Virus record (IMG/VR): IMGVR_UViG_3300047560_002175 | Coordinates: 1-64,000 of that record | Source: a virus | Taxonomy: Duplodnaviria > Heunggongvirae > Uroviricota > Caudoviricetes | DNA: 64,000 nt | Direction: 5' to 3' (one strand) | In this document: positions 8,505-57,118 of the stretch, one piece after another | How positions within the stretch are numbered: the first letter of the stretch is position 1 | Layout of the letters: each line of letters opens with the position of its first letter | Translations under genes and position numbers: made by a program | Notes under the pieces: model-generated | Told to the model about the DNA's origin: nothing | The model's database searches: none | The model's input: only the letters and a program-made list of their open reading frames with translations

Positions 8505-8918
8505 TTAAACCCCATATCTGTTTCGTTTTGCAGCAGCAACTGGGCTAATTTTATGAGTATCGGGCGATTCTGTTGATCTTTTAGATGATCCTACTGACTT
8601 TCTGCTAATGCCCATTTGTTTTGCTGCAGCATCGAGCATTTTATCATCTTCGTCTGAGAATGAGATTGTAACAAAATCACCACCTAATGATCCTTTATGA
8701 GTTACTGCTGCTTTGTTAGGAGCACTTGAGAGCATCACACCGTACTTGTAAGCACGATATGGGTCGTTATTGTTATTTAATGCAGGATATGCAGTTAAAC
8801 CAGGAACTGCATCTCTTGCAGATTTATGTAGTTTATTCTCACGAATGATAACTTGCATCTCAGCAATGTCACGTTCTAGTTGTTCTATATCTTCTTTTGT
8901 AATTTTTTTCATATTCAT
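8505..8918 (-). CDS. Hypothetical protein
   Basis: 137-aa ORF. Confidence 0.4.
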   Translation of the reverse strand: MNMKKITKEDIEQLERDIAEMQVIIRENKLHKSARDAVPGLTAYPALNNNNDPYRAYKYGVMLSSAPNKAAVTHKGSLGGDFVTISFSDEDDKMLDAAAKQMGISRKSVGSSKRSTESPDTHKISPVAAAKRNRYGV

Positions 8919-10624
8919 TCCAATGTACAGTTTAATCCCTCCCGTGTGGCTTGAAATAAAGTTTTACCGTCTACAGTAATTTCTTCATCTACACCCGTTA
9001 TTAGTTGGAAATTAATTTTGTCACCTAATTTAGCGTACTCTCTTGCTTGTGTGCTACTAACGTTTGTATCATTAGATCTGTCACCGCTACTGACAAACTT
9101 TAATACTACGTGTTCTCTACCATTTGGTCCTCGTACATAATCGGTTGTACGAGTTGGACCACTGTTCCAGTTATTTAATGCAGTTTCTAAACTATTATTA
9201 CCTGGGCCTAACCTATCACTTCCTGCAATAAATGTCATGTGTCTATAGCCTTTATCGTATAGCCAACATGCAGCTTTCCATGGATCTGTTACAAAATCTG
9301 ACACTATAAATTCAGCATATTCCGGATGAATTTTCTTAATAAACTCAGTCTTAATATCGTAATTTAATGGATCATGTTTTGGATCACATTTGTTACTAGC
9401 AAAAATATACGCATGATTCTTACCAAGATCTACAGTTTGTTGCATTACTTTTGTATGTCCAATAGTCGGCGGATTCATTCTACCAAAGCAAAAAACTGCC
9501 ATTGGCATATTGCTTTTTGTTTCAATTTCTTCCGCTGGTATTTTGTATTTTGAAAAGTTAGCACGACTAAATTCTAACCGATTAATGATCTTTAATTTAT
9601 CATTACCGGCTCCTATTACATAGCCTTCGTGACTTATAATACTATTTATAATAGGTTGAACGGCACTGTGCAGTTGTTGCTCGTCAATCTGTCGTTTAAT
9701 ATCTAATTTAAGATTAGATATAGCACTCCATATTGCCCATAATCCTATTATACCTCTTTGAATATCTGCATTAAAACTGCCATCTTTTCTACACAGTTTT
9801 TCTCGTACACTATGGGTAAATCGAGGCTGTGCAAATTCTAAAAACCGTTCAACAATATTAGTTTCCATATCACCAGAGTTTATCATTTTAGTAATAAATG
9901 GACTCATTGCTGCAATTATACATTTGCATTTAGCCGTAGTAATTTTAGCAATACAAGCGTCTACGTTGCTGGAATGCGTTGTTATTGCATCTTGTGCGCG
10001 TAAAAGTAATGTGTTGTTTACTGTTATATTTGGTTTATTAGGCATTTGAGTTGCAATAAATGTGATATCTTTGCAATTTGAAAATACATCAAACCCTGTA
10101 ATAGGTTCGTCGGCTGCGTTTAGCCCTGGAAAGAATGTGTGTACAGCAATACCGCCTACACTATTAGAAATTGATTGTCCTAAGTCACTATTACAATCGA
10201 CATGATATTCAACAGTGTTAGGTTTAAAGATAAATTGATTGTTAATACAAGTAGGAGTTCCTGTCCATAACAAATCACCCATATAATACGTGTCTGTTAC
10301 TTTTGGAATAATATTTTCTAATGCAGGACGTAGAATATCTTCTTTAGCCCATAAGTCGCTACGTAATGAATTTCGAGAATTGTCATAATCTCGAATAGTT
10401 GTAAAGTCAAGTTTGCCAGCAGCGATTTGTTTAAACATGTGTTTATCAACAAATACTAAATTACCATTTGGATCTCGACCAAAAACTATTGCAGGAAAGC
10501 CATCCCATTTAATAGTTAATGTATCAGTGTTAAAAGAAAGACTACTTAGTTCATTAACTGCTCTCTGAGCTCCTTTAGATCCTTCTAAAATAATTAGATC
10601 TTCAGGGTGTGCAATTCCTGCCAT
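8915..10624 (-). CDS. Two-domain protein: N-terminal KxDG nucleotidyltransferase (ligase-like) motif plus C-terminal cytidylyltransferase-like (NMNAT/NadD-like) domain
   Basis: TIKWDGFPAIVFGRD near the N-terminus (KxDG at residue 39). C-terminal FGRMNPPTIGH (H-x-G-H nucleotidyltransferase motif) and VSSTQAREY (ISSTxIR-like). Confidence 0.5.
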   Translation of the reverse strand: MAGIAHPEDLIILEGSKGAQRAVNELSSLSFNTDTLTIKWDGFPAIVFGRDPNGNLVFVDKHMFKQIAAGKLDFTTIRDYDNSRNSLRSDLWAKEDILRPALENIIPKVTDTYYMGDLLWTGTPTCINNQFIFKPNTVEYHVDCNSDLGQSISNSVGGIAVHTFFPGLNAADEPITGFDVFSNCKDITFIATQMPNKPNITVNNTLLLRAQDAITTHSSNVDACIAKITTAKCKCIIAAMSPFITKMINSGDMETNIVERFLEFAQPRFTHSVREKLCRKDGSFNADIQRGIIGLWAIWSAISNLKLDIKRQIDEQQLHSAVQPIINSIISHEGYVIGAGNDKLKIINRLEFSRANFSKYKIPAEEIETKSNMPMAVFCFGRMNPPTIGHTKVMQQTVDLGKNHAYIFASNKCDPKHDPLNYDIKTEFIKKIHPEYAEFIVSDFVTDPWKAACWLYDKGYRHMTFIAGSDRLGPGNNSLETALNNWNSGPTRTTDYVRGPNGREHVVLKFVSSGDRSNDTNVSSTQAREYAKLGDKINFQLITGVDEEITVDGKTLFQATREGLNCTLE

Positions 10625-10645: not shown

Positions 10646-11014
10646 TTAATCGTAAGTGCCGTCTTTTATATTATCAGACACGTCCTTAAACAACTGCTTA
10701 CATACTTTCTTACAAATCTTAATATCTATATCATCTGGTAATTCACGTATTGGATAATCCGTTAGATAACATTTATATGCTTTTTCTATTGTAGGTTTAA
10801 ACATTTTAAAACTAACATCTTTACCATCTTTTATTTTATCTTTGCATTTAAGAATAGTAGGATGCAAGTGTCGACGATAAACTTCGTCATTATTATGTAA
10901 ATAGTGGAGAAGATCATCGACTAAGTCAAAATCTATTTCACTACCTTTTTCAGTTTGTTTTGTAAATTGCTCACTTTTAAAGTGTGCATTTTCAAGTAAT
11001 TCGTTAATACGCAT
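10646..11014 (-). CDS. Hypothetical protein
   Basis: 122-aa ORF preceded by a TATAAATA motif. Confidence 0.4.
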   Translation of the reverse strand: MRINELLENAHFKSEQFTKQTEKGSEIDFDLVDDLLHYLHNNDEVYRRHLHPTILKCKDKIKDGKDVSFKMFKPTIEKAYKCYLTDYPIRELPDDIDIKICKKVCKQLFKDVSDNIKDGTYD

Positions 11015-11044: not shown

Positions 11045-11650
11045 CTAATTAAGAATCCTATCGATTGATAACTTAATATTGCCTAAATGTAATTTAACAA
11101 ATAAAAGAGTGTGTTCTCCTTTAACATATAATTGTGAGCCAGCATCATATCTATTTGGTTTTACAGATAACAACCGTTCAGTTTTTGGTTGAAGTTTAAT
11201 TTTGTCATTGTTGTTAGACCATTCTATAAACTCAGGATTAAGATTAGCTACTCCACCGAGCGTAACTCTAAAATCATATGGAGTATTTGGCATGTATACC
11301 ATTCCTCGTTCTAATCCATCTGGTGGAATACCAATTGAATCAACAAACCTTGGTATTAAATCTCGAATAGCAGTAATATCATTGTAATTGTTAGTATAGA
11401 TAATTAACGTTGGTAAATTAACTCTTGTTGCAAAGTTTTCCATATTCATTATATGTTCATATAGAAGAGTAGTTGCGTTATAATGATCTGGATAACGAAT
11501 ACTATCTATTTTAGAAACCATCTTAAGTCGTTTAGCATATTTAGACTTGTCATGTCCTTTAAAGATATCGCCATTGGCGAGAGTCAATACGATATTGTAT
11601 TGAAACTCGCCTTTGTACAATTTCTTAACAGTGGTAAACTTAATTGTCAT
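11045..11650 (-). CDS. Hypothetical protein
   Basis: 201-aa ORF. Confidence 0.4.
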   Translation of the reverse strand: MTIKFTTVKKLYKGEFQYNIVLTLANGDIFKGHDKSKYAKRLKMVSKIDSIRYPDHYNATTLLYEHIMNMENFATRVNLPTLIIYTNNYNDITAIRDLIPRFVDSIGIPPDGLERGMVYMPNTPYDFRVTLGGVANLNPEFIEWSNNNDKIKLQPKTERLLSVKPNRYDAGSQLYVKGEHTLLFVKLHLGNIKLSIDRILN

Positions 11651-13926
11651 ACTGCTTGATTAACTGCCCGTACATGATCAAGTGTTAGTACTGGCCCTTT
11701 AGTAATTACTTTAGGTTTTGCTGTTAATGAAATCTTGTCATCAACAACACTAATTGTTAACCAACCGCCGTTTTTAAGATCACCAAACAACATCATTTTA
11801 GCAAGATCGCGCTTGATCTCTTTATCAATTACACGATGTAGCGGTCTAGCACCCATCTTAGGATCAAAGCCTTTTTCTAACAACCAATTAGTTGCAGTTT
11901 TGTCAACTTTAATACGTACACCTTTGTCTTTAACTTGTTCACGAACTTCATCCATAAACTTGTTAATAACTTTAACCATTGAATCTTTACCTAATTTGCT
12001 AAAGGTAATAATACCGTCAAGTCTGTTACGGAACTCAGGAGTTAAAAACTTCTTAAGTTCTGCATCTGAATAGTCTTTTTCTTGAGTACCAAAGCCAATT
12101 TGATTCTTTTCTGCAGCTTGAGCACCAGCATTAGTGGTTAGAATTAGTACAATATGTCGACAATCTGCTTGTCTGCCGTTTGAACCTGTAATAAAACCAT
12201 TGTCCATCATTTGCAATAGTACAGTTGATACATCCGGATGTGACTTTTCAATCTCATCAAACAGCAATACTGCGTTAGGATTTTCTTGAATTTGTGTGAT
12301 CAATAACCCTGCACTGTCTTCAAAGCCAACATAACCCGGAGGACTACCAATTAATTTACTAATACTATGCTTTTCTTGATACTCAGACATATCAAAACGT
12401 AACAATTTAGTACTCAAGTGTTTAGCAAGTGCCTTAGCAGTTTCAGTTTTACCGCAACCTGTAGGCCCCATAAACACAAAACTACCAATTGGTTTATTTT
12501 CAGGTTTTAAACCTGCTTGTGCAACCATGATCTTATCAACAATTTCAGTAATTGCAGTGTCTTGGCCAAATACTTCTGTTTCAAGGGATTCTTGTAATGT
12601 GGCAATAGCACCGGTTTCAGTTTGCATAATTTGTTCAATAGGCATATTGATCATTTTTGCTAATTCAAACTGAATTTCAGGCTCAGATACGATTCTGTGT
12701 TCAGCAAGTTTTAAGTTAAATCGCGAACATGCACAGTCAATTAAGTCAATAGCTTTGTCAGGTAGCTTTTTATCCGCTTGATATTTAACAGATAATTTAA
12801 TTGCAGCCTGTAATGCATCGTCTTTGATTTTAAGTTTATGATGTCCTTCGTAGTATTTCTTAATACCTTTAAGAATCTGCAAAGTCATTTCTTGTGTAGG
12901 TTCATCAACAGTAATACGTTGGAATCTACGCATCAATGCACGATCTTTCTCAAAATGCTTACGATATTCATCCCATGTAGTTGACGCAATAACTTTGATG
13001 TTACCTTTACTAAGTGCAGGTTTCATCATATTAGCCAAGTCATTAGATGAATTACCTGAAGCACCTGCACCACTAATCATGTGTGCTTCGTCGATAAACA
13101 ATACGCATTTGCCTAATTTTTGTAGTGCTTTGATTACTTGTTTAAAGCGTTCTTCAAAGTCGCCTCTGTACTTAGATCCTGCTAACATTGCAGCAATATC
13201 AAGATTGTACACTGTATAATCTAATAAGAAATCTGGCACTGCTTCGTTGACAATATTATAAGCAAGCCCTTCAGCAATTGCAGTTTTACCTACACCTGGA
13301 TCACCTACCATAATAATATTATTTTTACTACGACGACCTAATGCTAGTGCAATATGCTCTAACTCGTCTTCTCTACCAATAACAGGATCAATCTTTTTAT
13401 TCTTAACTTCTTCATTTAAGTTAGTAGTATAAGATTGCAACGCCTTGTTAGTTGATTGATTTTTATTATCACCTACGTCATCGCCCATGTCAGTTGAATT
13501 CTGCATGTATTCGTTGAACTTTTCTTTAGTGATATTTACTTGTGATATATAGTAAAATGCCCATGTGCGCTTTTCACCTAACATTGCTAAGAAAAAGTTA
13601 GATGGTTCTATTTTTTGCCCACCATTAAACAATACCTGTGTAAATGATCTATTCAACACACGTTCAACTGCTTGTGTTTTTTTAGGTTTAACAACAACGT
13701 CAACTGTAGTAATTTCTTGACATTTAGTTTGTAAATGATTAAGTAATAAATTTTTCAAATAGTTTACGTCTGCCCCAACTCCTTGTAAAGCATTAGTAAA
13801 TGAACTATCTTCCATAAGCATCGAGCATAGAACATGTTCTAATGTTACATACTCATGGTGCATATTTTTTGCAGAGATAATAGCTTTGTCAAAAATCTCT
13901 TGTAATTTTTCGCTTGGTTCAACCAT
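11647..13926 (-). CDS. clpA: ClpA-like double AAA+ Clp ATPase (chaperone/unfoldase)
   Basis: Clp_N-like N-terminus. Two Walker A boxes, GDPGVGKTAIAEG and GPTGCGKTETAKAL. 759 aa with no long ClpB middle domain. Confidence 0.85.
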   Translation of the reverse strand: MVEPSEKLQEIFDKAIISAKNMHHEYVTLEHVLCSMLMEDSSFTNALQGVGADVNYLKNLLLNHLQTKCQEITTVDVVVKPKKTQAVERVLNRSFTQVLFNGGQKIEPSNFFLAMLGEKRTWAFYYISQVNITKEKFNEYMQNSTDMGDDVGDNKNQSTNKALQSYTTNLNEEVKNKKIDPVIGREDELEHIALALGRRSKNNIIMVGDPGVGKTAIAEGLAYNIVNEAVPDFLLDYTVYNLDIAAMLAGSKYRGDFEERFKQVIKALQKLGKCVLFIDEAHMISGAGASGNSSNDLANMMKPALSKGNIKVIASTTWDEYRKHFEKDRALMRRFQRITVDEPTQEMTLQILKGIKKYYEGHHKLKIKDDALQAAIKLSVKYQADKKLPDKAIDLIDCACSRFNLKLAEHRIVSEPEIQFELAKMINMPIEQIMQTETGAIATLQESLETEVFGQDTAITEIVDKIMVAQAGLKPENKPIGSFVFMGPTGCGKTETAKALAKHLSTKLLRFDMSEYQEKHSISKLIGSPPGYVGFEDSAGLLITQIQENPNAVLLFDEIEKSHPDVSTVLLQMMDNGFITGSNGRQADCRHIVLILTTNAGAQAAEKNQIGFGTQEKDYSDAELKKFLTPEFRNRLDGIITFSKLGKDSMVKVINKFMDEVREQVKDKGVRIKVDKTATNWLLEKGFDPKMGARPLHRVIDKEIKRDLAKMMLFGDLKNGGWLTISVVDDKISLTAKPKVITKGPVLTLDHVRAVNQAV

Positions 13927-13960
13927 TATTAGATCCTTGTGTAGTAGTTAATAAAGCAAT

Positions 13961-13989
13961 ATTATAAAGTATTTTAATTATAAAGTCAA
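13961..13989 (-). promoter_or_regulatory. Sigma70-type promoter (TTGACT-17-TATAAT) for clpA, overlapping the dnaJ terminator hairpin
   Basis: Minus strand reads TTGACTTTATAATTAAAATACTTTATAAT. The AGTCAAAT-A-ATTTGACT inverted repeat covers the -35 box. Confidence 0.55.
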
Positions 13990-14837
13990 ATAATTTGACT
14001 GTTTATTTGTTGCAATTGTGCCACCAATTCTGGTTTGGTAACTGCAGGGGTTTTTATTTTTACAACAGTAACAAATCTTCCAATCTGTCTATTGTGTAAA
14101 TTAGTAAACCCGCCGTGCGCTTTTGCATATTCTGTACCAGGTTGTACTCCTGGTTTAATAGTAATGTTATGTTTTTCACCTATTAAGTTGGTAACTTCTT
14201 TAACACAACCAATCATTGCTTCAATTGGTGAAATTTCAATTGAAGTAAATATGTCATTACCTTCGCGTCTAAAATTAGGATCAGGTATTACATTTATAGT
14301 TACATTTAAATTACCACGTGGAACACCCGGCTGTGAGTTATCTCCTAAGCCGTCATATCTAATAGTATCTCCGTTATCAATACCTGCAGGTACGTTAATT
14401 ACAACATGCTGTGGTTCTCCGCTAGGCAAGTTAATATTAGCATCTATTTGTTTTCCTTTAAATGTATCTGCTAATGTGACTTGAATTTGTAAATTTAAAT
14501 CTCGGTTACGGCGACCTTGTTGGAATCCATGTGCAAAGTGTTGTCCAAAAATATCATGCATATTAAACTGGAAGCCTCCACCGAAACTGTTACTAAATGG
14601 TCCTCCTCCACCAAATCCACCAAATCCACCAAATGGATTTCCATTTTGTTGCATATCATATTCTTGGCGTTTTTGTGGATCACTTAATGTATCATATGCT
14701 ACTGAAATATCTTTAAATGTAGCTTGGTCTCCACCTTTGTCGGGATGATGTTTATTTGCTAATGAACGATATGCTTTTTTAATATCGTCTTGTGATGCAT
14801 CTTTTGATACACCTAATTTTGAATAAAAGTCTGTCAT
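13986..14837 (-). CDS. dnaJ: DnaJ-class J-domain co-chaperone without a Zn-finger (CbpA/Sis1-like)
   Basis: DFYSKLGV...YRSLANKHHPDKGGD J-domain with HPD. G/F-rich linker GGFGGFGGGG. C-terminal substrate-binding domains. Confidence 0.85.
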   Translation of the reverse strand: MTDFYSKLGVSKDASQDDIKKAYRSLANKHHPDKGGDQATFKDISVAYDTLSDPQKRQEYDMQQNGNPFGGFGGFGGGGPFSNSFGGGFQFNMHDIFGQHFAHGFQQGRRNRDLNLQIQVTLADTFKGKQIDANINLPSGEPQHVVINVPAGIDNGDTIRYDGLGDNSQPGVPRGNLNVTINVIPDPNFRREGNDIFTSIEISPIEAMIGCVKEVTNLIGEKHNITIKPGVQPGTEYAKAHGGFTNLHNRQIGRFVTVVKIKTPAVTKPELVAQLQQINSQII

Positions 14838-14875
14838 GATTAATCTCTCATAATAAAAGGTCAGTTAGTATAGTA

Positions 14876-14904
14876 ATTATACTATACTAGAACTGACCTG
14901 TCAA
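14876..14904 (-). promoter_or_regulatory. Sigma70-type promoter (TTGACA-17-TATAAT) for dnaJ, embedded in a palindrome
   Basis: Minus strand reads TTGACAGGTCAGTTCTAGTATAGTATAAT. An imperfect inverted repeat GGTCAGTT...AACTGACC is centred on the -10 box. Confidence 0.55.
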
Positions 14905-14912
14905 GATTTTGA

Positions 14913-15158
14913 TTACTTACGTTTTTTAACTACTTTTTTTGGTGCAGGTTTAGCTGCTGGTTTTACAACTGGTTTTTTAGGTGGAACTTTTTTACCTTCA
15001 AACTTCTTGTGAACTTTGATAGTTTTACATTGTTTCTTACCTTTTACAGTTTTGCAAACTTCTTTAGTAGTTGGACCAACGTGTCCTTCTTCATGATTAG
15101 CATACGCAACTGGAGCTGCTAACATGCCAATAATAATTAATGATAATAGTTTTTTCAT
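14913..15158 (-). CDS. Secreted Lys/Pro-rich small protein (signal peptide)
   Basis: MKKLLSLIIIGMLAAPVAYA signal-like N-terminus. KPxxKP repeats. Confidence 0.45.
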   Translation of the reverse strand: MKKLLSLIIIGMLAAPVAYANHEEGHVGPTTKEVCKTVKGKKQCKTIKVHKKFEGKKVPPKKPVVKPAAKPAPKKVVKKRK

Positions 15159-15169
15159 ATTATTTCCTT

Positions 15170-15634
15170 TTATGATTTTGGAATTGGTTTAGCTGCAGGG
15201 CGTTTTCTTGCCACTTTAGGAGCTTCTTGTACAACAGGTTCTGGAGCTGGCTCTGGAATAACAACTGGTTCTGGTGCTATCACAGGAGCTGGTGCAGGCG
15301 CTGCTGGTGGAACATATACCGGTGCAGGAGCTGGTGCTGCTGGCGGTGGTGTAAAGCTGCTAAAGTCAGGTAAACTCGGACCTGCAATTTTTTCTTGTGT
15401 ACGACCGTGTGCTGAGATACCTAATACAACACCCATTGCAATGTGATAAAGACCGCCACCTTGTAATGTTAGTGGTTGCCACATATCTAAGTTTTGGCCT
15501 GGGTTATAGTATTGTAATATATTGTATAAGATTGGTCCTAAAACGAAGTCAAACAAACATGTAACCATGTATGTCATTGCCATCATTGGGCGCCAGTATC
15601 TTGTCATAAAATCCTCTTTATTTTGTTCTTCCAT
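15170..15634 (-). CDS. Membrane protein with a Pro/Ala-rich tail (holin candidate in the lysis cluster)
   Basis: Two hydrophobic segments, then PAPAPAPV repeats. Position next to the spanin and endolysin genes. Confidence 0.4.
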   Translation of the reverse strand: MEEQNKEDFMTRYWRPMMAMTYMVTCLFDFVLGPILYNILQYYNPGQNLDMWQPLTLQGGGLYHIAMGVVLGISAHGRTQEKIAGPSLPDFSSFTPPPAAPAPAPVYVPPAAPAPAPVIAPEPVVIPEPAPEPVVQEAPKVARKRPAAKPIPKS

Positions 15635-15649
15635 GTACGTTCCTTGTAT

Positions 15650-15919
15650 TTAAATCGCTTTTGCTGCGGTTGATGCAATTGTGATTGCAATTTCTATAAT
15701 TTTATTCAATTCTGCTTGTGCGTTAAGTGCTGCAGCATCTTCTATGATAATCCCTGTCGTAGAAATGTCTGATAATAATTCTTCATATTCTGAAGCACTA
15801 AGTTTTCCATTTTGATAATTGTTAGTTAGATCTTTAAGTTCTGTAGCTGCAGCCTCTAATGCATGACTTTTAACTGCATCAAATCCACTTAAACTATTTA
15901 AAATGTCTTGTGTATTCAT
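15650..15919 (-). CDS. Hypothetical protein
   Basis: 89-aa ORF. Confidence 0.35.
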   Translation of the reverse strand: MNTQDILNSLSGFDAVKSHALEAAATELKDLTNNYQNGKLSASEYEELLSDISTTGIIIEDAAALNAQAELNKIIEIAITIASTAAKAI

Positions 15920-16320
15920 CTTGGTTTACCTCCTATAGTTTGGGCAATTGTAGTTGCCGCTGTTGTTAAAATATCCATTTTTTGTTTACAATAAGCTTCA
16001 CTTATCTTTTCTGTTTTATGATATCGAACATGTAACGGTTGTGTTAAGTCCATTAGTGATTCTGATAATTTTATAGTAGCTTTATTTTCTGGTATGAATT
16101 CAGCATAGTTTTTAAATTCAATACTTTTTAAATATATACGATCTACAATAGGAACCATTTGTTGTTGGTTGCTGCAGAACTCGGAGCTTATTTGAGATAA
16201 GCTACGGATATCGTTAATTAGTTGATATTCATTTTGATCAAACTTAGCCATAAAATATGCATCCATTGCAGCGCAACCAGATAGCATACTAAGTATAATA
16301 ATTGCTAATACTTTTTTCAT
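15916..16320 (-). CDS. Lipoprotein (lipobox LSGC)
   Basis: MKKVLAIIILSMLSGCAA signal plus lipobox. Confidence 0.45.
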   Translation of the reverse strand: MKKVLAIIILSMLSGCAAMDAYFMAKFDQNEYQLINDIRSLSQISSEFCSNQQQMVPIVDRIYLKSIEFKNYAEFIPENKATIKLSESLMDLTQPLHVRYHKTEKISEAYCKQKMDILTTAATTIAQTIGGKPR

Positions 16321-16616
16321 TTTACGTCCTCATATATTTTCTTTTGTTGCGTGTACCAATCTTGCCAAGCAAGATATCGTTCTCGTAGTTCATAGTAAGA
16401 ACCGTAATTCTCACTAGCATTTTCTAATATATCACTTAGTTCCGGGTTAGTTTGAGATAATGTCTTTAACGTCGGTGCCGACTCCATCAAGGATGGAGGT
16501 ACCTTTGGGAAGCTCATTGTTAACGGCACTGTTGTAGAGCACCCTTGCAACATCAGGAACAGTACACTCGGCATTGATAATTTCTTTGTGTTCTTGAATA
16601 ATCTTTTTTGTTGCAT
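16317..16616 (-). CDS. o-spanin candidate (outer-membrane lipoprotein, Rz1-like), overlapping the i-spanin gene in another frame
   Basis: Lipobox LQGC. Pro-rich. The start lies inside the ORF 16447-16947. Confidence 0.5.
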   Translation of the reverse strand: MQQKRLFKNTKKLSMPSVLFLMLQGCSTTVPLTMSFPKVPPSLMESAPTLKTLSQTNPELSDILENASENYGSYYELRERYLAWQDWYTQQKKIYEDVK

Positions 16617-16947
16617 ATACTTTTTCCTTGATAACTTTTACTTTTTCTACTACACGAGTTTCAATTTGAACATTAACTTCTTTAGATTGTTGTTCAGCTA
16701 TTTCTATTTTTTGTTCAAGTTCTGCTACACGATTACGCCATTCCATTTCAACACCGTAACCACCTTTAAAGTAAACACCGGCAACTAATAAGATTGTTGA
16801 CAGTATATTTAACAATAACTGATATTGGTTAAGGAATGGTATGTACTTAATAAAAAATCCTGCTATAGTACCAATAGCACCTAATAGCAGGACTGTATTA
16901 ACTACCCAAAGTAAATATGCATCAGGGAGGAAATGTAAGAAAAACAT
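16447..16947 (-). CDS. i-spanin-like protein (N-terminal TM segments plus periplasmic coiled coil); alternatively a holin
   Basis: Hydrophobic N-terminus. AELEQKIEIAEQQSKEVNVQIE coiled coil. Directly downstream of the endolysin. Confidence 0.5.
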   Translation of the reverse strand: MFFLHFLPDAYLLWVVNTVLLLGAIGTIAGFFIKYIPFLNQYQLLLNILSTILLVAGVYFKGGYGVEMEWRNRVAELEQKIEIAEQQSKEVNVQIETRVVEKVKVIKEKVYATKKIIQEHKEIINAECTVPDVARVLYNSAVNNELPKGTSILDGVGTDVKDIISN

Positions 16948-17594
16948 TATGCACTCAATACTTTGATTGCGTTAGCATAGTGGTGTTTTCTGTCTTCTAA
17001 CCCAATAGTTCCGCCATTAATTCTTTTTGTTAAAGTAACAATGTCACCTTTGTCTGCCCATTGATTTAAATTATTAGTTTCCCAGAACCAGCAAGCACTT
17101 TGTACTGCACCTTCAAATGTTTCTAAATATTCAATTGTTTCATCGATATCCATTTCTAAGCTTTCTGCAAAACGAGTATAGTTGTCTTTACCGGTTAATT
17201 GGATAAGCCCACGCCCACAGAATTTAAATCCGTCACCAGTTGATTCATCGCCATTCCCCATACGACCGCCATACACTTTGCTTGCAATTTTTTGTGGATT
17301 TCCAGCATATGATTCTGCTAATGCATCGGTTGGGAAATATTTAGGGAATACTTTTCTCAATGTTGCTGCACGATAGTTTAAGTTTTCTTTCAATGCAGTG
17401 TAGTTTCCACTTTCGTGAGCAGTTTGAGCTAAAAATGCAGCAACTCGTTCTTTGCTCCAGATATCGTATTCTGGTAAGATTGAGCTTAATGCATCATACC
17501 ATTCTGCGATGTAAGGGTTGCCTGGTATAATTTTTGCTAAGTGTTCTTGTGTAAATGTAAATGCCATTATTTTTTCTCCAATGCTACAGCCCAT
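16947..17594 (-). CDS. Endolysin, glycoside hydrolase family 19 (chitinase-like lysozyme)
   Basis: FLAQTAHESG, GRGLIQLTGKDNY and INGG..G..DR motifs. The true start is possibly at the internal MAFTF. Confidence 0.8.
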   Translation of the reverse strand: MGCSIGEKIMAFTFTQEHLAKIIPGNPYIAEWYDALSSILPEYDIWSKERVAAFLAQTAHESGNYTALKENLNYRAATLRKVFPKYFPTDALAESYAGNPQKIASKVYGGRMGNGDESTGDGFKFCGRGLIQLTGKDNYTRFAESLEMDIDETIEYLETFEGAVQSACWFWETNNLNQWADKGDIVTLTKRINGGTIGLEDRKHHYANAIKVLSA

Positions 17595-20030: not shown

Positions 20031-20458
20031 AGTTTTTCAACAGTTATACCACATTTTTCTAAAAACTCAAGTCCAGCAGTACTACGATAAGTTTCTGTAT
20101 AGAACACTTTAATAATGCCGGACTGATATATCCCTTTAGCACACTCTATACACGGAGCATGTGTAATAAACATAAAAGCACCTTTACCTGATTCAGTCGA
20201 ACTAGCTAATTTCATTAGCGCATTCATTTCTGCATGGATGACTTCTGGTTTGGTTTTAAGATATGAACCACCATCTTGGATAATATCCATTTCTACTTCG
20301 CAAACATTATTCCAACCGGTAGGTGTACCGTTGTAGCCAAGACTAATAATACGATCATCTTTAACTACAACCGCACCAACTTTAAGCTTAACTGCGGAAC
20401 TAAGTTCCGCAAATGTATAAGCCGTTTTCATAAAAGCTTGTTTAAACTTAGCTTTCAT
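20027..20458 (-). CDS. cd: dCMP (deoxycytidylate) deaminase
   Basis: HAEMNAL and PCIECAK zinc-binding motifs of the cytidine/dCMP deaminase fold. Confidence 0.8.
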   Translation of the reverse strand: MKAKFKQAFMKTAYTFAELSSAVKLKVGAVVVKDDRIISLGYNGTPTGWNNVCEVEMDIIQDGGSYLKTKPEVIHAEMNALMKLASSTESGKGAFMFITHAPCIECAKGIYQSGIIKVFYTETYRSTAGLEFLEKCGITVEKL

Positions 20459-21309
20459 TACTTAATGCCAATCATCGGTAATGAGCTGTTAGGAACCATA
20501 GTAGTAGGCAATTCACCGTTCCATTTTTCAATAGCATTAAGTTCTGCTACGCCTGGGTTGTTTTTAACAGCTTCACCTTTTAAGTGAATGGCTTTAGCTT
20601 CAGCTTCTGCTACTAATAACCTTGCATTAGCTTCACCTTCTGCCTGTGCAACCGCAATAGCAGCCTGTGCTTTAGCAGTTTCAACTTGGTTTTGTCTTGT
20701 AATTGCCTGTTGCGATGCATTAATCTTTTCATTTATTGCAGTAGTAACAGTGTCTGGTAATCTAATATCGCCGACCCAAGAAAGATGATCTAAAATAATA
20801 CCGTATTGTTCAATCTCACCACGAACACGCTTTTCAGCAGCTTTGATTAAATCACTTTTGCCTTCGCCGTAGACTGTTTCAATTGACTTAGTCGATGATT
20901 CAGTATTGATTGCATCGCGCACTAGGTTTCTTAAGTAAACATCTGTAATTTCAGTAATACCTTTACGATACTTTTGGAATAAAACTGGAATTTTATCCTC
21001 TTGTAGCGTATATGTGATACCAATATCAGCATTTACACTTAAACCTTCTTTAGTTTGGAAGGTAATTGATTCGTCTTCTGCACGTCCTTCGGTATGTGAT
21101 TTAGTCCAAGTGTAGTTCTGCATAAAGGTTGGAAACGTGTATAACTCTTCGTTTACACCAATCCAGTATCGTCCTGGTCCTAATTGTTCAGTATCAACAC
21201 CTTTGTCGCCACCAAGTAAATGAACTTTAACACCAACTGTACCTACTTCAACTTTTGAACAACCTACGAGTGCAGTGGCAATTGCAGCAACTAAAAGTAA
21301 TTTTTTCAT
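20458..21309 (-). CDS. SPFH/Band-7 (prohibitin/HflC-like) lipoprotein
   Basis: Lipoprotein signal MKKLLLVAAIATALVGCS. AEGEANARLLVAEAEAKA coiled region. C-terminal AIEKWNGELP typical of SPFH proteins. Confidence 0.75.
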   Translation of the reverse strand: MKKLLLVAAIATALVGCSKVEVGTVGVKVHLLGGDKGVDTEQLGPGRYWIGVNEELYTFPTFMQNYTWTKSHTEGRAEDESITFQTKEGLSVNADIGITYTLQEDKIPVLFQKYRKGITEITDVYLRNLVRDAINTESSTKSIETVYGEGKSDLIKAAEKRVRGEIEQYGIILDHLSWVGDIRLPDTVTTAINEKINASQQAITRQNQVETAKAQAAIAVAQAEGEANARLLVAEAEAKAIHLKGEAVKNNPGVAELNAIEKWNGELPTTMVPNSSLPMIGIK

Positions 21310-22577: not shown

Positions 22578-22961
22578 TTAGTACATTGGTTGACTAAAGT
22601 CAAACGTTTGTTCTGTGGAAGGATTTGATAGTCCAATATTAACATCGGACGGCAAATGATTAGAAACTGCTAAAATTGCCTTATTGTCAACTCGTCTAAC
22701 GGTGACAATATCACCGTTTTCTTTTTTAACTTTAACGCCGCGTGTCCAACGACCGTGTTCAATTAAAATCCAGTCACCAACGCTTACATCTTGTTGTTCT
22801 GGACCAATTTTATATACTTGACCCCATCTTGGTCTAATACCTTCGGATGTTCCGTCGTCACTTTTAATAATAATACCACCTGCTGATACTTGTTCTTCAA
22901 AGTTCATATCAGTAATTAATACATTATCGTGTATAGTTTCTAATGTTTCTGTTATTATCAT
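22578..22961 (-). CDS. GroES/Cpn10-like co-chaperonin (T4 gp31 analogue)
   Basis: Mobile-loop-like SAGGIIIKSDDG. G.V..IG.....V.VGDWIL...ILAV pattern matching the GroES fold. Confidence 0.6.
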   Translation of the reverse strand: MIITETLETIHDNVLITDMNFEEQVSAGGIIIKSDDGTSEGIRPRWGQVYKIGPEQQDVSVGDWILIEHGRWTRGVKVKKENGDIVTVRRVDNKAILAVSNHLPSDVNIGLSNPSTEQTFDFSQPMY

Positions 22962-41220: not shown

Positions 41221-43272
41221 ATGAGTAGTTTTATAGGTAATAAACCAAATCAAGTACCAACAAATGGTGATCTGGGAAGATTAGCATTTATGGATTTTAT
41301 AGGCATGGAGGACATTGGGTCCTCCATCCCAACTATTGTATCTGCATCTAACATTTATCCACAAGTAAAGATATCTTATGTTAGTGGAACTGTTACAATT
41401 GATACAATAACTCCTCCTCAGGATTTAATAAATGGTGGACAAATAACGTTAATACCAACTGGAGTATTTGCATTAAGCACTTCTGGAAATATTGCACTTG
41501 CAATCAACTCTGAAATTTCAAAAGCAATTATTTTGACATATGATTCAGTTGTTGCAAAATGGTATCCAAGTTATACTAATACAGTTAATAATTTAACACT
41601 AAATGGTACTGCAAATTCTACTATTACACTTGGAACAGGTGGTACCGTTGCATACACAAAAGATAAATTATCAGTATTTGCGCAAACAACTGCATCAGAA
41701 TTTGCCAGTGTTATTTCAGATGGATCAACCGGTTCCGGTAAAATAGTATTGGCAACAAGTCCAACATTAGTAACACCTGTATTAGGTGCTGCAACTGCAA
41801 CTTCGATTAATAAAATTGCACTTACTGCAGTGGCTACTGGATCTACAATTACACTTGCAGATCAAAAAACATTAACCGTAAATAACACCGTAACACTTAC
41901 TGGTACTGATGCATCAACCATTACATTTGGGACAGGCGGTACCGTTACTTATACATCTAATAAATTATCAGTATTTGCTGCAACAACTTCATCTGAATTA
42001 GCTGGTGTTATTTCAGATGAAACTGGATCTGGTTTATTAGTGTTTAATACAAGTCCAACATTAGTAACACCTGCATTAGGTGCTGCAACTGCAACTTCAA
42101 TTAATAAAATTGCACTTACTGCGGTAGCTACTGGGTCTACAATTACACTTGCAGATCAAAAAACATTAACTGTAAATAATACAGTAACACTTACTGGTAC
42201 TGATGCATCAACCATTACATTTGGGACAGGCGGTACAGTTGCATATACATCTAATAAATTATCAGTATTTGCTGCAACAAGCTCATCTGAATTAGCCGGT
42301 GTTATTTCAGATGAAACTGGATTTAGTACAACTGGTTTACTGATGTTTAATAACAATCCAACAGTAGTTACTGGAATAGTTGCTGATGCAGCATCAACTA
42401 CATTTAATTTAATCAATACTGTTTCAACAACGGTAAATGCATTTGGTGCAGCAACAACATTAAATGTTGGATATACTGGTACAGGTGTAGCATCAACTAC
42501 AAATATTTCAACAGGAGCATTAGCTGGATCATTTATTAAAACAGTTAACTTAGGAACCGGCGCTGCTTCTGGATCAACTACTAATATTAATATTGGTTCA
42601 AATATTGCCGGAACTACAGCAATTAATAGTCCAACTATTTCTACATTAAGTGCTACTCTTGATTTATTTACAACAACTGTTGGAACTGTTAATTTTGGTA
42701 GTGTAGCCACTACTATGGGTATAGGATATACTGGTACTGCAGCATCTACACTTAATATTTCAACAGGCGCAGTTACAACTGGTACAACAAAAACAATCAA
42801 TATAGGAACAGGTGGAGCTGCAAGTTCTACTACAACTATGAATATTGGAACAAGTGCAGGCGCATCTAATGTAACAATTGGGTCAACTGTATCTGGTACA
42901 ACTACTGTTAATTACAATTTAGATGTATTGCAGAACATTACAGCTCGTCAAAATGTTACAGCATATTTTAGTTCTGATAGAAGATTAAAAGAAAACATCA
43001 CACCTATTGAAAACCCATTAGATAAGTTGTTAACATTATCAGGAAATACATTTAAGTGGTCTGATGAATACTATGCAACACAAAATCAAGAAATGGTTAA
43101 ACAATATGATGTTGGGGTTATTGCTCAAGAAGTATTAGAAGTATTGCCAGAAGCAGTACATGAGCGTGATTCTGGAATGTTAGCAGTTGATTATACAAAA
43201 TTAATACCATTATTAATTGAATGTATTAAGGCTCAACAAAAACAGATTGATAATTTATTAGCAAAGGAGTAA
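41221..43272 (+). CDS. Tail fibre/spike protein with a C-terminal intramolecular-chaperone auto-proteolytic domain (peptidase S74-like)
   Basis: C-terminal SSDRRLKENITPIENP...GNTFKWSDE motif (S-D-x-R-x-K-x-N-I). Internal 90-aa repeats. Confidence 0.8.
   Translation: MSSFIGNKPNQVPTNGDLGRLAFMDFIGMEDIGSSIPTIVSASNIYPQVKISYVSGTVTIDTITPPQDLINGGQITLIPTGVFALSTSGNIALAINSEISKAIILTYDSVVAKWYPSYTNTVNNLTLNGTANSTITLGTGGTVAYTKDKLSVFAQTTASEFASVISDGSTGSGKIVLATSPTLVTPVLGAATATSINKIALTAVATGSTITLADQKTLTVNNTVTLTGTDASTITFGTGGTVTYTSNKLSVFAATTSSELAGVISDETGSGLLVFNTSPTLVTPALGAATATSINKIALTAVATGSTITLADQKTLTVNNTVTLTGTDASTITFGTGGTVAYTSNKLSVFAATSSSELAGVISDETGFSTTGLLMFNNNPTVVTGIVADAASTTFNLINTVSTTVNAFGAATTLNVGYTGTGVASTTNISTGALAGSFIKTVNLGTGAASGSTTNINIGSNIAGTTAINSPTISTLSATLDLFTTTVGTVNFGSVATTMGIGYTGTAASTLNISTGAVTTGTTKTINIGTGGAASSTTTMNIGTSAGASNVTIGSTVSGTTTVNYNLDVLQNITARQNVTAYFSSDRRLKENITPIENPLDKLLTLSGNTFKWSDEYYATQNQEMVKQYDVGVIAQEVLEVLPEAVHERDSGMLAVDYTKLIPLLIECIKAQQKQIDNLLAKE
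41671..42330. repeat. Near-identical ~270-bp direct repeats (about 2.5 copies) inside the fibre gene
   Basis: Repeated protein segment LTAVATGSTITLADQKTLTVNNTVTLTGTDASTITFGTGGTV with nearly identical DNA. Confidence 0.7.
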
Positions 43273-53712: not shown

Positions 53713-53962
53713 TTGCCATAATAATTTCTTTATTAGGTCCGCAGGAATAAAATTCTACTTCGTAAAGATCTCTCGCGTGACCTAAGTATGTACACCCAAG
53801 AGGTTTTGAAATTGCTCGTCTTTGATCAGTGTATTTTACAGTATTAAATGTTAATCCTCCAACTACTGCTAACCCAACCATTACAACTGTTACTAATGCG
53901 GATTGAAATATCAGTCCGCCTAATACTCCTAAGAAAATTATTAGTATCATTGTTAAAATCAT
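53678..53962 (-). CDS. Small two-TM membrane protein
   Basis: 94-aa ORF overlapping both neighbours. Confidence 0.35.
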   Translation of the reverse strand: MILTMILIIFLGVLGGLIFQSALVTVVMVGLAVVGGLTFNTVKYTDQRRAISKPLGCTYLGHARDLYEVEFYSCGPNKEIIMASAGQQPKYKGE

Positions 53963-54987
53963 TCTGTAACTCCTTTAGAATTGTGATAATTATATAGTTC
54001 AAATGAAGCAAGGTTTTTGCCTTTGCTTTCTGCCATTATGTCAAAGTTATCTAAAAAGCTCAATGCCCAGTCATTGACTGCAACATTCCAGTAAAAGTTA
54101 GAATGAGCTCGAAGTTTTTGTTTATTTAATCCAGATTCAAGCAATAGTTGAAGTTCTGGCAAAGTTTGTTTGTTATGGGTTGGTAGCACATCTTCCCTAC
54201 TAATAGAATAATGCATAGTGGGGCGACGACCACGCCAGCTATCAATAACCCTTTGTACGCGCTCATCGTCCGGCTGTATGTATTCGCCTGTTTTAATAAA
54301 GTGATGGTGTATATCCAAAACCACAGGTACTCTACTAGCAAGGGTAAGGCAGTCATCAAGTCCAAAAGAAATCTCCTCATTTTCTACAGTAATACAATTT
54401 TTAGCAACATCGCTTAATCTTTCGTAAGCGTCTAAGAAACCTTGTGGACCACGTTTACCTGCAATATGCACATTGATTTTCATATCCTGAAATTCCTTGC
54501 CATATCCCATCCAACGTGCCATGTCTGCATGATATTCAAATTCTTCAATACTGCGTTCAACTACGTCATCTCGATCAGATGCTAGTACACAAAACTGACC
54601 TGGGTGGAAACTAAGTTTAATATCATTCGTTTTTGCAATTTCGCCAACACGAGCAAACTCACGCGCAATATAAGCAATCACATCAGGTTTTTTGTAAAAG
54701 TAAGAATAGTTTTCGTGTGTGTAAACAGGAAGTATATCGCTACTAATACGTAACATACGTAATGGTTGTGGAAGTGTAGAAACTTTGAGTACTAATTTAC
54801 GAGTAGCTTCAATATTTTGTTTTATTAGTTCCCACAGTTTTTTCTCAGCATTAGCTGGGAGTTGTCTGCCAAGCCAAGCAACTGTAGTAGTGCCTGTGTT
54901 ATATTTTTTACAATCGTCAGTTGATTTAATTCCGTCAACTTGATGCGGAAAATCAATAAACTTGCAAGCAAAGCCTATTCTGTACAT
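53959..54987 (-). CDS. uvdE: UV-damage endonuclease UvdE
   Basis: RISSDILPVYTH, SFHPGQFCVLAS, INVHIAG, ITVENEE, LDIHHHF and DIMAESKGKNLA line up with Bacillus/S. pombe UVDE. Confidence 0.8.
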   Translation of the reverse strand: MYRIGFACKFIDFPHQVDGIKSTDDCKKYNTGTTTVAWLGRQLPANAEKKLWELIKQNIEATRKLVLKVSTLPQPLRMLRISSDILPVYTHENYSYFYKKPDVIAYIAREFARVGEIAKTNDIKLSFHPGQFCVLASDRDDVVERSIEEFEYHADMARWMGYGKEFQDMKINVHIAGKRGPQGFLDAYERLSDVAKNCITVENEEISFGLDDCLTLASRVPVVLDIHHHFIKTGEYIQPDDERVQRVIDSWRGRRPTMHYSISREDVLPTHNKQTLPELQLLLESGLNKQKLRAHSNFYWNVAVNDWALSFLDNFDIMAESKGKNLASFELYNYHNSKGVTE

Positions 54988-55404: not shown

Positions 55405-56175
55405 CTACGCTAAGTTGGATTTAAGTAATTTTGAAATAGCTTGTACTTCAATATTTACCACACCTAATACACCTAAAGCAGCCCATCCAAAGAATACAAA
55501 CCCGTAGTGTAATGGTGCTACGAATAGTTCTTCCATGAACCAGAAAGTGTGTCCCCATTCGTTTAATCCAACGTTTGGAAGAATCATAAATGGCCCGATT
55601 ACAGATACCATGTATTGTAATGGTAAGCCTTTTTGGTAGGTAGGCAAGCGTGTTTTAGCATATAAGAATGCTGCGACACCTGTGATGATGTAGATAGGAT
55701 AACTTAGATAAAACTCAATAACATGACTTGGTGTAAAATCAGTATCACGGACAATCGTTTGATGCCATGTACCATCTTGTTCTGTAAAGTATGAAGCACC
55801 GTAATAAATTGCAATACCATACATTACTAACCAAACCCAGTGTGTAAAATGTCGACGCAGTTCCTCGCGAGGTGTAATTGACATTACGTTGCGATCACGT
55901 GATTTCCAAAGATAACCCCATAATACAGAAGCGGTTAGGATTTCAAGAACCATTTCAATGTATAGGAAGTTCATCCAATATGTTTCAAACTCTGGTGCAA
56001 ATGAGTCTAAACCAGCAGACCATCCATAAACACCTTCATACCAACGGACCCACCCGTAAAATACAACGTACAACGCTGCACCTGCGAGCATGTTTGTTTT
56101 GTTTAAAAGTGAAGCTTCTTTAGCTTCAGCTTTTACTGTTTCAATTGTAGCTGACATGTTGTTTCTCCTAAGCAA
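55405..56175 (-). CDS. pmoC: Ammonia/particulate-methane monooxygenase subunit C (AmoC/PmoC family, bacterial type)
   Basis: SYFTEQDGTWHQTIVRDTDFTPSHVIEFY...AFLYAKTRLP and MILPNVGLNEWGHTFWFMEELFVAPLHYGFVFFGWAAL closely match bacterial AmoC/PmoC. Six hydrophobic helices. AGGAG RBS. Confidence 0.85.
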   Translation of the reverse strand: MLRRNNMSATIETVKAEAKEASLLNKTNMLAGAALYVVFYGWVRWYEGVYGWSAGLDSFAPEFETYWMNFLYIEMVLEILTASVLWGYLWKSRDRNVMSITPREELRRHFTHWVWLVMYGIAIYYGASYFTEQDGTWHQTIVRDTDFTPSHVIEFYLSYPIYIITGVAAFLYAKTRLPTYQKGLPLQYMVSVIGPFMILPNVGLNEWGHTFWFMEELFVAPLHYGFVFFGWAALGVLGVVNIEVQAISKLLKSNLA

Positions 56176-56325: not shown

Positions 56326-56532
56326 CTATCTTGGTGGGAAATCTTGCGGTGGAAGTGGATGTCCTTCATGTTTGTGATGTCTGGTATAATGATGTTCTAA
56401 ATTACCAGGTCTAATATAATCACGGTGGACAGGCTTTGAATCGCAGCCTGTCATTAAAAATACTGCAAATAGCAAACTAACGACTAGTAACAATTTCATC
56501 GACAAGCCCATACATAACACTCTCTTCAGCAC
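56326..56532 (-). CDS. Small His-rich lipoprotein (candidate periplasmic metal-binding peptide)
   Basis: Lipobox LMTGC. Mature part contains HHYTRHHKHEGH. The start may be at an internal Met because the ORF overlaps the clpP 3' end. Confidence 0.45.
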   Translation of the reverse strand: MLKRVLCMGLSMKLLLVVSLLFAVFLMTGCDSKPVHRDYIRPGNLEHHYTRHHKHEGHPLPPQDFPPR

Positions 56533-57058
56533 TCATAAAACAATCACGACTCATGTCTTGTTTAAGTTTTTCAAACGATTGTCCAGTGTTTTTTACATAC
56601 ACTTCAGTTAAATAAGTATTCAACTTTAATGTTTCTTCAAGTGCAATTTGCATGTCAATTGCAGTACCGCGTGTACCTGAACTAACTTGATGAATCATGT
56701 GTCTTGCGCTTGGAAGAATTTTACGTTTACCTTTAGCACCTGAACTAGCAAGTAAACTGCCCATACTACATGCTTGACCCATAACAATAGTAGAAACATC
56801 TGGTTTGATAAAGTTCATTGTATCGTAAATTGCAAGTCCTGCAGTAACTGAACCACCTGGGCTATTGATAAAGAAGTGGATATCTTCGGTACCTTGACTT
56901 TCTAAGAACAGTAACTGGGCAACAATAATACTTGAAGATTGTTCGTTAACATCTGTATCTAACATAATAATCCTATCTTTGAGCAATCGCGAATAAATGT
57001 CATAACTGCGTTCGCCTTTTGCTTCTTGTTCTACGACCATTGGGATTAAACTTGGCAT
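56477..57058 (-). CDS. clpP: ClpP serine protease subunit
   Basis: GQACSMGSLL (catalytic Ser) and HMIHQ (His), with the typical ClpP fold pattern. GGAG RBS. Confidence 0.85.
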   Translation of the reverse strand: MPSLIPMVVEQEAKGERSYDIYSRLLKDRIIMLDTDVNEQSSSIIVAQLLFLESQGTEDIHFFINSPGGSVTAGLAIYDTMNFIKPDVSTIVMGQACSMGSLLASSGAKGKRKILPSARHMIHQVSSGTRGTAIDMQIALEETLKLNTYLTEVYVKNTGQSFEKLKQDMSRDCFMSAEESVMYGLVDEIVTSR

Positions 57059-57089: not shown

Positions 57090-57118
57090 ATTGTAAAGTA
57101 AAACTATTAAGAAGTCAA
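57090..57118 (-). promoter_or_regulatory. Sigma70-type promoter (TTGACT-17-TACAAT) for clpP
   Basis: Minus strand reads TTGACTTCTTAATAGTTTTACTTTACAAT. Confidence 0.5.

Follow-up and report, generated by a model that had tools for sequence, protein, structure and literature searches.

The jumbo phage Atu_ph07 encodes ClpA, DnaJ, ClpP, ClpS, ClpX and ClpB, and most RaK2-like phages have kept ClpA (Attai 2018, PMC6102473). ClpP, ClpS, ClpA/ClpX, DnaJ and Hsp10 have been discussed for 224 jumbo phages, with proposals that reach from the targeting of host proteins and the recruitment of host Hsp70/Hsp60 to virion assembly (Iyer 2021, PMC7824862), and a 2025 paper counts ClpA among the orthologous groups that 80% or more of 'moraphage' genomes share. 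Here we analyze a comparable gene set in a stretch of 64,000 nucleotides (positions 1 to 64,000 of the IMG/VR virus record IMGVR_UViG_3300047560_002175; hereafter, the window). The set comprises a ClpA-type unfoldase, a J-protein (DnaJ), the peptidase ClpP, a GroES/gp31-like co-chaperonin and a PpiC-type parvulin. All five genes are real, the parvulin being partial at the window edge. The initial annotation of the window implied that this suite was novel, which does not hold: it is already annotated and discussed for jumbo phages, and co-carriage of ClpA, DnaJ and ClpP is known in Atu_ph07 (PMC6102473), in jumbo phages (PMC7824862) and in RaK2, PA5oct and Phosso. The PA5oct omics paper (PMC7318152) and a 2026 jumbo-phage review contain nothing on Clp proteins or chaperones, and in the literature searched we found no experiments on the ClpA, ClpP or class-B DnaJ of any phage in this group.

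We read the gene set, with a probability of roughly 60%, as an ancient and vertically inherited protein-quality-control set of RaK2/PA5oct/Atu_ph07-type jumbo phages, which would consist of a phage-supplied ClpAP and of co-chaperones that redirect the host machinery.

Comparison with cultured jumbo phages and related viral contigs

In the window, dnaJ (13986-14837, minus strand) lies directly upstream of clpA (11647-13926, minus strand), the two open reading frames (ORFs) being adjacent as the initial annotation had reported. This gene order is common to cultured jumbo phages. Atu_ph07 has dnaJ (gp293) directly upstream of clpA (gp292) on the same strand, and PA5oct has dnaJ (gp297) directly upstream of clpA (gp298), PhoH being encoded close by on the other strand there as it is in the window; in both phages ClpP is encoded elsewhere (gp676 in Atu_ph07). 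Sinorhizobium phage Phosso presents the order dnaJ-def-clpA, again with ClpP elsewhere, and 31 of 74 loci related to the window have this order too. The ClpA proteins of these three phages carry the IGF tripeptide of the window protein, and identity to the window is just 40-42% for ClpA and 48-57% for ClpP. A true ClpP (44-58% identity) is found in Atu_ph07, Phosso, the PA5oct group, RaK2, K64-1, Muenster and RaK2-like coliphages, and also in Xanthomonas XbC2, Erwinia jumbo phages, Lak phages and SCTP-2.

The likeness does not extend to every gene. RaK2 and Vibrio phage 2.275.O carry clpA on its own, at another locus. The two ORFs that follow clpA in the window, p201 (201 amino acids (aa); 11045-11650, minus strand) and p122 (122 aa; 10646-11014, minus strand), are not detectable beside clpA in the cultured phages. 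Atu_ph07 has ClpS, ClpX and ClpB besides (PMC6102473), in a comparison that covers the 64-kb window on our side. A phmmer search of this window with E. coli ClpS, GrpE, SspB, DnaK and ClpX and with the def product of the clade matched ClpA alone, these being single-sequence queries of limited sensitivity. Bacteria pair clpS with clpA; the window has dnaJ-clpA in place of this pair.

Relatives of the window ClpA occur at 476 loci on IMG/VR viral contigs and include at least 120 representative homologues (90%-identity clusters) of 75-95% identity, several of them on contigs of 350-375 kb. The clade comparison was made on the best 80 of these 476 loci. The order holin-p81-DnaJ-ClpA-p201-p122 is kept in all 80, wherever flanks exist, with identities to the window of 74-95% for ClpA, 44-88% for DnaJ, 25-74% for p201 and 34-77% for p122. 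ClpA is thus conserved well above its neighbors (74-95% compared with 25-88%). PolB, a clamp loader, PhoH, dCMP deaminase, a holin, an endolysin and a gp31-like protein are encoded around clpA on the contigs of relatives. The residence on viral contigs, the 352-372 kb relatives with their phage genes and the synteny with cultured phages together argue for a phage origin of the locus. The peptide deformylase gene (def) of the 31 loci is placed between dnaJ and clpA, with an overlap at either end (9520-10008 in locus L031, 9507-10001 in L074 and 5508-6014 in L146). Its presence there and in Phosso suggests that a dnaJ-def-clpA operon is ancestral and was reduced in the subclade of the window, which has no def between the two genes.

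ClpA and ClpP

The window clpA encodes a double-AAA+ Hsp100 unfoldase of 759 aa with the Pfam domains Clp_N, AAA, AAA_lid_9, AAA_2 and ClpB_D2-small. Residues 5-726 match positions 2-733 of the 734-position NCBIfam ClpA model TIGR02639 (848.8 bits), and PHROG 4871 matches over the full length (818.6 bits). E. coli ClpA (PDB 1ksf) aligns in a single stretch (E 1.6e-191; residues 8-735 against 6-743), whereas ClpB, ClpC and Hsp104 align in two separate stretches, which argues that the window protein has no M-domain. Both Walker A motifs (GDPGVGKT, 208-215; GPTGCGKT, 487-494), both Walker B motifs (LFIDE, 276-280; LLFDE, 554-558) and the pore loops KYRG (252-255) and GYVG (531-534) are present. 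In agreement with the initial annotation, this is a full-length ClpA-type double AAA+ ATPase, which aligns over its whole length with the E. coli protein and retains both Walker pairs. Compared with E. coli ClpAP (PDB 1ksf, 6w1z, 6uqe), the protein is collinear over its full length, equally lacks the M-domain, shares the Walker pairs and the KYRG/GYVG loops, and has IGF opposite the E. coli IGL.

This IGF (610-612) sits in the alignment at the IGL through which E. coli ClpA docks to ClpP. In 120/120 homologues examined, IGF, GYVG and the two Walker A/B pairs are unchanged, and among the 80 nearest bacterial ClpAs, 58 have IGF as well. Conservation across the clade reaches 81-88% in the AAA+ modules and 83% in the docking-loop region; the N-domain (66%) and the C-terminal tail (43%) have diverged, a point of difference from E. 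coli ClpA. The docking loop is under strong purifying selection.

ClpP, a canonical peptidase of 193 aa, is encoded at 56477-57058 (minus strand), where the initial annotation had placed it. It matches Pfam CLP_protease (E 6.5e-72) and scores 276.7 bits with NF001368, over the cut-off of 249. The residues of the triad are present as Ser98 (GQACSMG), His123 (MIHQ) and Asp172 (SRDCF), so that the protein resembles the ClpP of E. coli ClpAP in length and in its Ser-His-Asp residues; identity to bacterial-type ClpP is 52-58%. Crude triad patterns all match in 46 of 51 related loci, with some of the Asp-pattern matches at a non-catalytic position, and the five misses are probably artefacts of the patterns or of the high-scoring segment pairs. 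The PHROG 94 label 'head maturation protease' would make ClpP a prohead protease. This role was rejected, as NF045542, the model of ClpP-related head-maturation proteases, gives 92.5 bits, below its cut-off of 120; the setting of clpP among non-structural genes counters it as well, and PA5oct encodes a separate prohead protease, gp152 (PMC7318152).

The initial annotation had proposed that ClpA and ClpP might form a protease of the phage's own, with the docking loop and the catalytic triad as the features on which this proposal depends. Both are in place, as are all the prerequisites that can be read from the sequence for a phage-encoded ClpAP, and we consider such a protease plausible; its substrates might be host proteins, antiviral proteins or proteins of the phage.

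Co-inheritance and origin of clpA and clpP

The genes clpA and clpP share a contig, about 44 kb apart, in two relatives of 372,031 bp and 352,184 bp; their separation in the window is 43 kb. Divergence from the window is matched for the two proteins (ClpA 87% and ClpP 92% in the 372,031-bp relative; ClpA 76% and ClpP 77% in the 352,184-bp relative). Carriage on the same contig and this matched divergence argue that both genes are older than the clade and were inherited together. The initial annotation had raised their joint acquisition: co-inheritance finds support here, and acquisition as a single operon does not, given the 43-kb gap.

Bacterial and archaeal ClpAs were scanned with one genome per species in 185,579 species. 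Identity to the window protein is 41-45% for the closest of the bacterial ClpAs, and none exceeds 45% among the matches listed. In a neighbor-joining tree, the window clade and five cultured jumbo-phage ClpAs split from the 80 nearest bacterial ClpAs in 60/60 bootstrap replicates, a split to which long-branch attraction may contribute under this method. With only 41-45% identity to its nearest bacterial counterparts, clpA is, as judged from sequence, an ancient phage gene and not a recent host capture.

A different origin would have the chaperone and protease genes recently captured from the host as auxiliary genes, like pmoC, which would top up proteostasis during the long infection of a slow-growing methanotroph. 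An amoC/pmoC gene, clearly a host-derived auxiliary gene, does lie about 300 bp downstream of clpP, and these genes have been suggested to aid host survival of infection stress (Attai 2018). Yet no bacterial ClpA above 45% identity is among the matches listed, the phage ClpAs are monophyletic in every bootstrap replicate, the synteny is common to phages of Pseudomonas, Agrobacterium and Sinorhizobium, and clpP and clpA are fixed whereas pmoC is variable. Recent host capture was rejected on the identity levels and the phylogeny, and we regard it as very improbable.

The amoC/pmoC gene itself (55405-56175, minus strand) is full-length, with E 2e-121 for Pfam AmoC and 399 bits for NCBIfam AmoC_BACT against a cut-off of 319, and has its own sigma70-type promoter (56308-56281, 11/12 matches). 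Among relatives, locus L084 has a copy 1.5 kb from clpP (92% identity), and none is present near clpP in L081, L082 and L141. A gene of this family in the window makes the host probably a methanotroph or an ammonia oxidizer. The phage belongs with the large freshwater phages that carry pmoC or amoC (PMC7674155; bioRxiv 10.64898/2026.06.18.733297); neither Clp proteins nor chaperones come up in the main text of PMC7674155. On the other side of clpP, upstream, lie a calcineurin-like metallophosphoesterase gene (57296-58081, minus strand) and a gene for an IF-1-like protein of 72 aa (58091-58309, minus strand), the equivalent of which is annotated as PF01176 eIF-1a in relatives; synteny of these two genes extends to the 372-kb and 352-kb relatives.

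The J-protein, the co-chaperonin and the parvulin

The window dnaJ encodes a class-B J-protein of 283 aa that resembles CbpA and T. thermophilus DnaJ2. Pfam recognizes the J-domain (E 4.8e-22) and DnaJ_C (E 2.1e-30), the HPD motif is at residues 31-33, a Gly/Phe-rich linker spans 68-90, and the single Cys of the whole protein argues that there is no zinc finger. Matches over the full length in a single stretch are obtained with PRK14299, CbpA PRK10266 and PDB 6psi, 4j80 and 3lz8, with T. thermophilus DnaJ2 structures among them. The protein thus has what defines class B, namely the J-domain with HPD, the Gly/Phe-rich linker, two C-terminal beta-sandwich domains and no zinc-finger domain, and the earlier description of a DnaJ lacking this finger was correct. 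The T4 gp31/GroES system and RB43 Rki are phage co-chaperones that redirect host GroEL or DnaK, as we propose for the window proteins. RB43 Rki is a small protein that consists of a J-domain only; the window J-protein, unlike Rki, has the complete class-B Hsp40 architecture, including the C-terminal domains that bind substrate.

The second co-chaperone is a Cpn10-fold protein of 127 aa (22578-22961, minus strand). Its match to Pfam Cpn10 is weak and above threshold (29.9 compared with 21.1 bits), and the NCBIfam GroES models all score far under their cut-offs. A score of 59.3 bits with PHROG 931 'head morphogenesis', which we take to be the family of T4 gp31-type co-chaperonins, is better than that of the GroES PHROG. 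The assignment as a GroES/gp31-like protein made in the initial annotation is upheld by both matches, the PHROG 931 match being the stronger. The last gene of the set, the PpiC-type parvulin, runs past the end of the window. The fragment at 63743-64000 (minus strand; E about 1e-21) comprises the C-terminal 85 aa, and it is for this part that the earlier identification is confirmed. In the 372-kb relative, the corresponding position is also occupied by a parvulin gene (PF00639 Rotamase), which is likewise cut by the end of the examined locus.

Promoters and the hairpin upstream of dnaJ

A composite promoter-terminator precedes dnaJ (14850-14904, minus strand). It combines a perfect TTGACA-17-TATAAT promoter (-35 at 14904-14899, -10 at 14881-14876) with a 42-nt hairpin (14899-14858, -24 kcal/mol) that is followed by a T-run (14857-14850). 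The PeSL cassettes of T4-like phages likewise pack an early sigma70-type promoter together with a stem-loop terminator into a single short stretch between genes (Arbiol 2010; Comeau 2014, PMC4122927); what sets the dnaJ element apart is that its -10 hexamer forms the hairpin apex, with the -35 directly adjoining the 5' arm. A repeated mobile PeSL cassette is not evident, as the dnaJ element is the only one in the 64-kb window to qualify.

The element is conserved in relatives. The 12/12 promoter is kept in 29 of 43 distinct related upstream regions. When each of 33 distinct versions of the element was folded individually and compared with shuffled sequences, all 33 gave the same hairpin (-15.5 to -26.9 kcal/mol; mean z -6.7), with the T-run in 29. 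There are 22 different outer stems with compensatory changes, as in GGTCAG/CTGACC, GGCTCC/GGAGCC, GGTCCAAT/ATTGGACC and GGTTATGT/ACATAACC. RNAalifold predicted no structure on a MAFFT alignment of these elements, in which the stems are out of register.

The clpA promoter (TTGACT-17-TATAAT, 11/12; 13961-13989, minus strand) has its -35 over the dnaJ stop codon. At least 11 of 12 positions match in 21 of 26 distinct loci without def, often with an extended TG -10, and the region contains no G+C-rich hairpin or terminator. The initial annotation had described clpA and dnaJ as each having a promoter nested in the terminator of the preceding gene. This is borne out for dnaJ by the hairpin and the T-run; for clpA the promoter of its own stands and the nesting in a terminator does not. 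The sigma70-type promoter of clpP (TTGACT-17-TACAAT, 10/12; 57090-57118, minus strand) is a perfect 12/12 in the closest relatives. Seven perfect TTGACA-16/17-TATAAT promoters occur in the window, all on the minus strand (63136, 60231, 52852, 50977, 22556, 14904 and 2419), with a chance expectation of about 0.02 as a rough back-of-envelope figure. Those that were inspected precede genes, dnaJ included. The seven 12/12 promoters on this strand imply that the minus-strand gene block would rely heavily on host sigma70 RNA polymerase.

From these features a sequence of events can be proposed. Host RNA polymerase would transcribe clpA, dnaJ and clpP early. The hairpin upstream of dnaJ would stop read-through from the lysis cassette, and the embedded promoter would start the dnaJ transcript within the 3' arm; a transcript that starts there could not form the hairpin, lacking the 5' arm, and would escape self-termination. 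ClpA hexamers would then dock via IGF on phage ClpP, and possibly on host ClpP too, to form ClpAP, while the J-protein would pass clients of the phage's choice to host DnaK and the gp31-like protein would re-tool host GroEL.

Early-type promoters are also what a role in counter-defense would call for, in which ClpAP degrades host immunity proteins and the J-protein competes with, or diverts, the host DnaJ/DnaK used by some bacterial NLR-like sensors. ClpP has been counted among patchily distributed phage peptidases, with the suggestion of a use against the host (Iyer 2021). The sensor bNACHT25 detects phage by way of host DnaJ (Conte 2025), and the phage J-protein RB43 Rki acts on host DnaK and sigma32 (Perrody 2012), both as cited in PMC12619734. 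The window genes are strongly conserved core genes, however, and do not show the patchy, fast turnover that is typical of counter-defense; we hold this role to be quite unlikely.

Protease or ClpP-independent chaperone

The main rival to a phage ClpAP within an inherited quality-control set is a ClpA that works without ClpP. ClpA would be an unfoldase or remodeling chaperone acting with DnaJ, host DnaK and, ancestrally, the def product in phage protein maturation, replication-complex remodeling or virion assembly, and ClpP would serve, for example, host or phage ClpX. E. coli ClpA by itself remodels P1 RepA, and so do DnaJ/DnaK. In the clade, clpA always adjoins dnaJ, often def and never clpP. 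In other phage lineages ClpP is found beside a ClpX-like gene (weak 24% matches; loci L095, L121 and L122), and translocase or virion-assembly roles have been suggested for jumbo-phage ClpA and ClpX (Iyer 2021).

Several observations tell against the ClpAP reading itself. The conserved neighbors of clpA, dnaJ and def, are folding and maturation genes, which fits a chaperone as well as a protease. In RaK2 and Vibrio phage 2.275.O, IGV replaces IGF/IGL at the docking position, a point that also favors the chaperone. At 43 kb from each other, clpA and clpP are not co-transcribed. ClpA scores under the equivalog cut-offs (TIGR02639, 848.8 compared with 993.15; NF008263, 716.1 compared with 1350), so that by the NCBI criterion its sequence marks it as a divergent ClpA-type protein and not an equivalog, and ClpP stays under the TIGR00493 cut-off (267.1 compared with 308.6). 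Early timing is predicted from promoter consensus only, and searches of the literature found no measurements of expression, interaction or activity in this phage family.

Against a ClpA that works without ClpP stands the docking loop. An IGF in 120/120 clade members within a loop region that is 83% conserved is hard to explain if docking is dispensable. ClpP, moreover, is carried in every well-sampled lineage with ClpA, and ClpX was not found in the window by phmmer with a single sequence. A ClpA that acts solely as a chaperone is, in our judgment, rather unlikely.

If a phage ClpAP is formed, the gene after clpA may bear on its substrates. The ATG of p201 overlaps the clpA stop codon (ATGA). 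The gene stands immediately 3' of clpA in nearly all relatives, evolves fast and forms a family of about 150 representative clusters, nearly all of about 200 aa. Exact-sequence look-ups gave no record of the window ClpA or ClpP, and for p201 an identical copy on a 908-bp Logan contig alone. Its AlphaFold2 model is confident (predicted local distance difference test score, 95), and neither sequence nor fold comparison gave an informative match. For p122, which follows p201 across the clade, there was no Pfam or PHROG match. Translational coupling to clpA and a confident predicted fold without a characterized relative are the grounds for a speculative proposal: p201 could be a new adaptor or regulator that sets the substrates of an early, self-contained phage ClpAP and steers degradation of host regulatory or anti-phage proteins. 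We consider this unlikely as it stands.

Other genes of the window

A lysis-like cassette (14913-17594, minus strand) lies directly upstream of dnaJ. It encodes a Glyco_hydro_19 endolysin (16947-17594), a lipoprotein-like ORF of 134 aa with an LSGC lipobox (15916-16320), a holin-like protein of 154 aa (15170-15634; PHROG holin, E 1.4e-6) and a Lys-rich secreted protein of 81 aa (14913-15158), all on the minus strand. On the other side, the third gene downstream of clpA is conserved and encodes a protein of 569 aa (8915-10624, minus strand) with DUF6267 (E 6.7e-39) and a C-terminal cytidylyltransferase-like region (PHROG 3041, PHROG 395). Between the clamp loader and PhoH, and kept in relatives, is the gene of an SPFH/Band_7 protein (20458-21309, minus strand; E 1.4e-26). 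Bacterial SPFH proteins (HflK/C) modulate the FtsH protease, and this protein may be an additional proteostasis-related gene product.

The window also encodes a DNA ligase, a homologue of the UV-damage endonuclease UvdE (53959-54987, minus strand; E 2.3e-41) and giant ORFs of 4041 aa and 1788 aa. Between these two is a fibre-like protein of 683 aa (41221-43272, plus strand) with a C-terminal Peptidase_S74 domain (E 7e-16), an intramolecular chaperone; at least one fibre thus comes with its own folding aid, and no observation made here ties the chaperone and protease set to fibre folding.

Implications for jumbo-phage biology

As a discovery this is incremental, since the gene content was annotated and discussed before. 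Its weight comes from the place of clpA as a near-core gene of a large and globally distributed group of jumbo phages, for which the cultured relatives PA5oct, RaK2 and Atu_ph07 are tractable models of Clp function. If these phages do supply their own ClpAP and redirect host DnaK and GroEL, protein turnover in infected cells would be under phage control, independent of the host. Given the nearby amoC/pmoC gene, such control would be relevant to the ecology of methanotrophs and nitrifiers.

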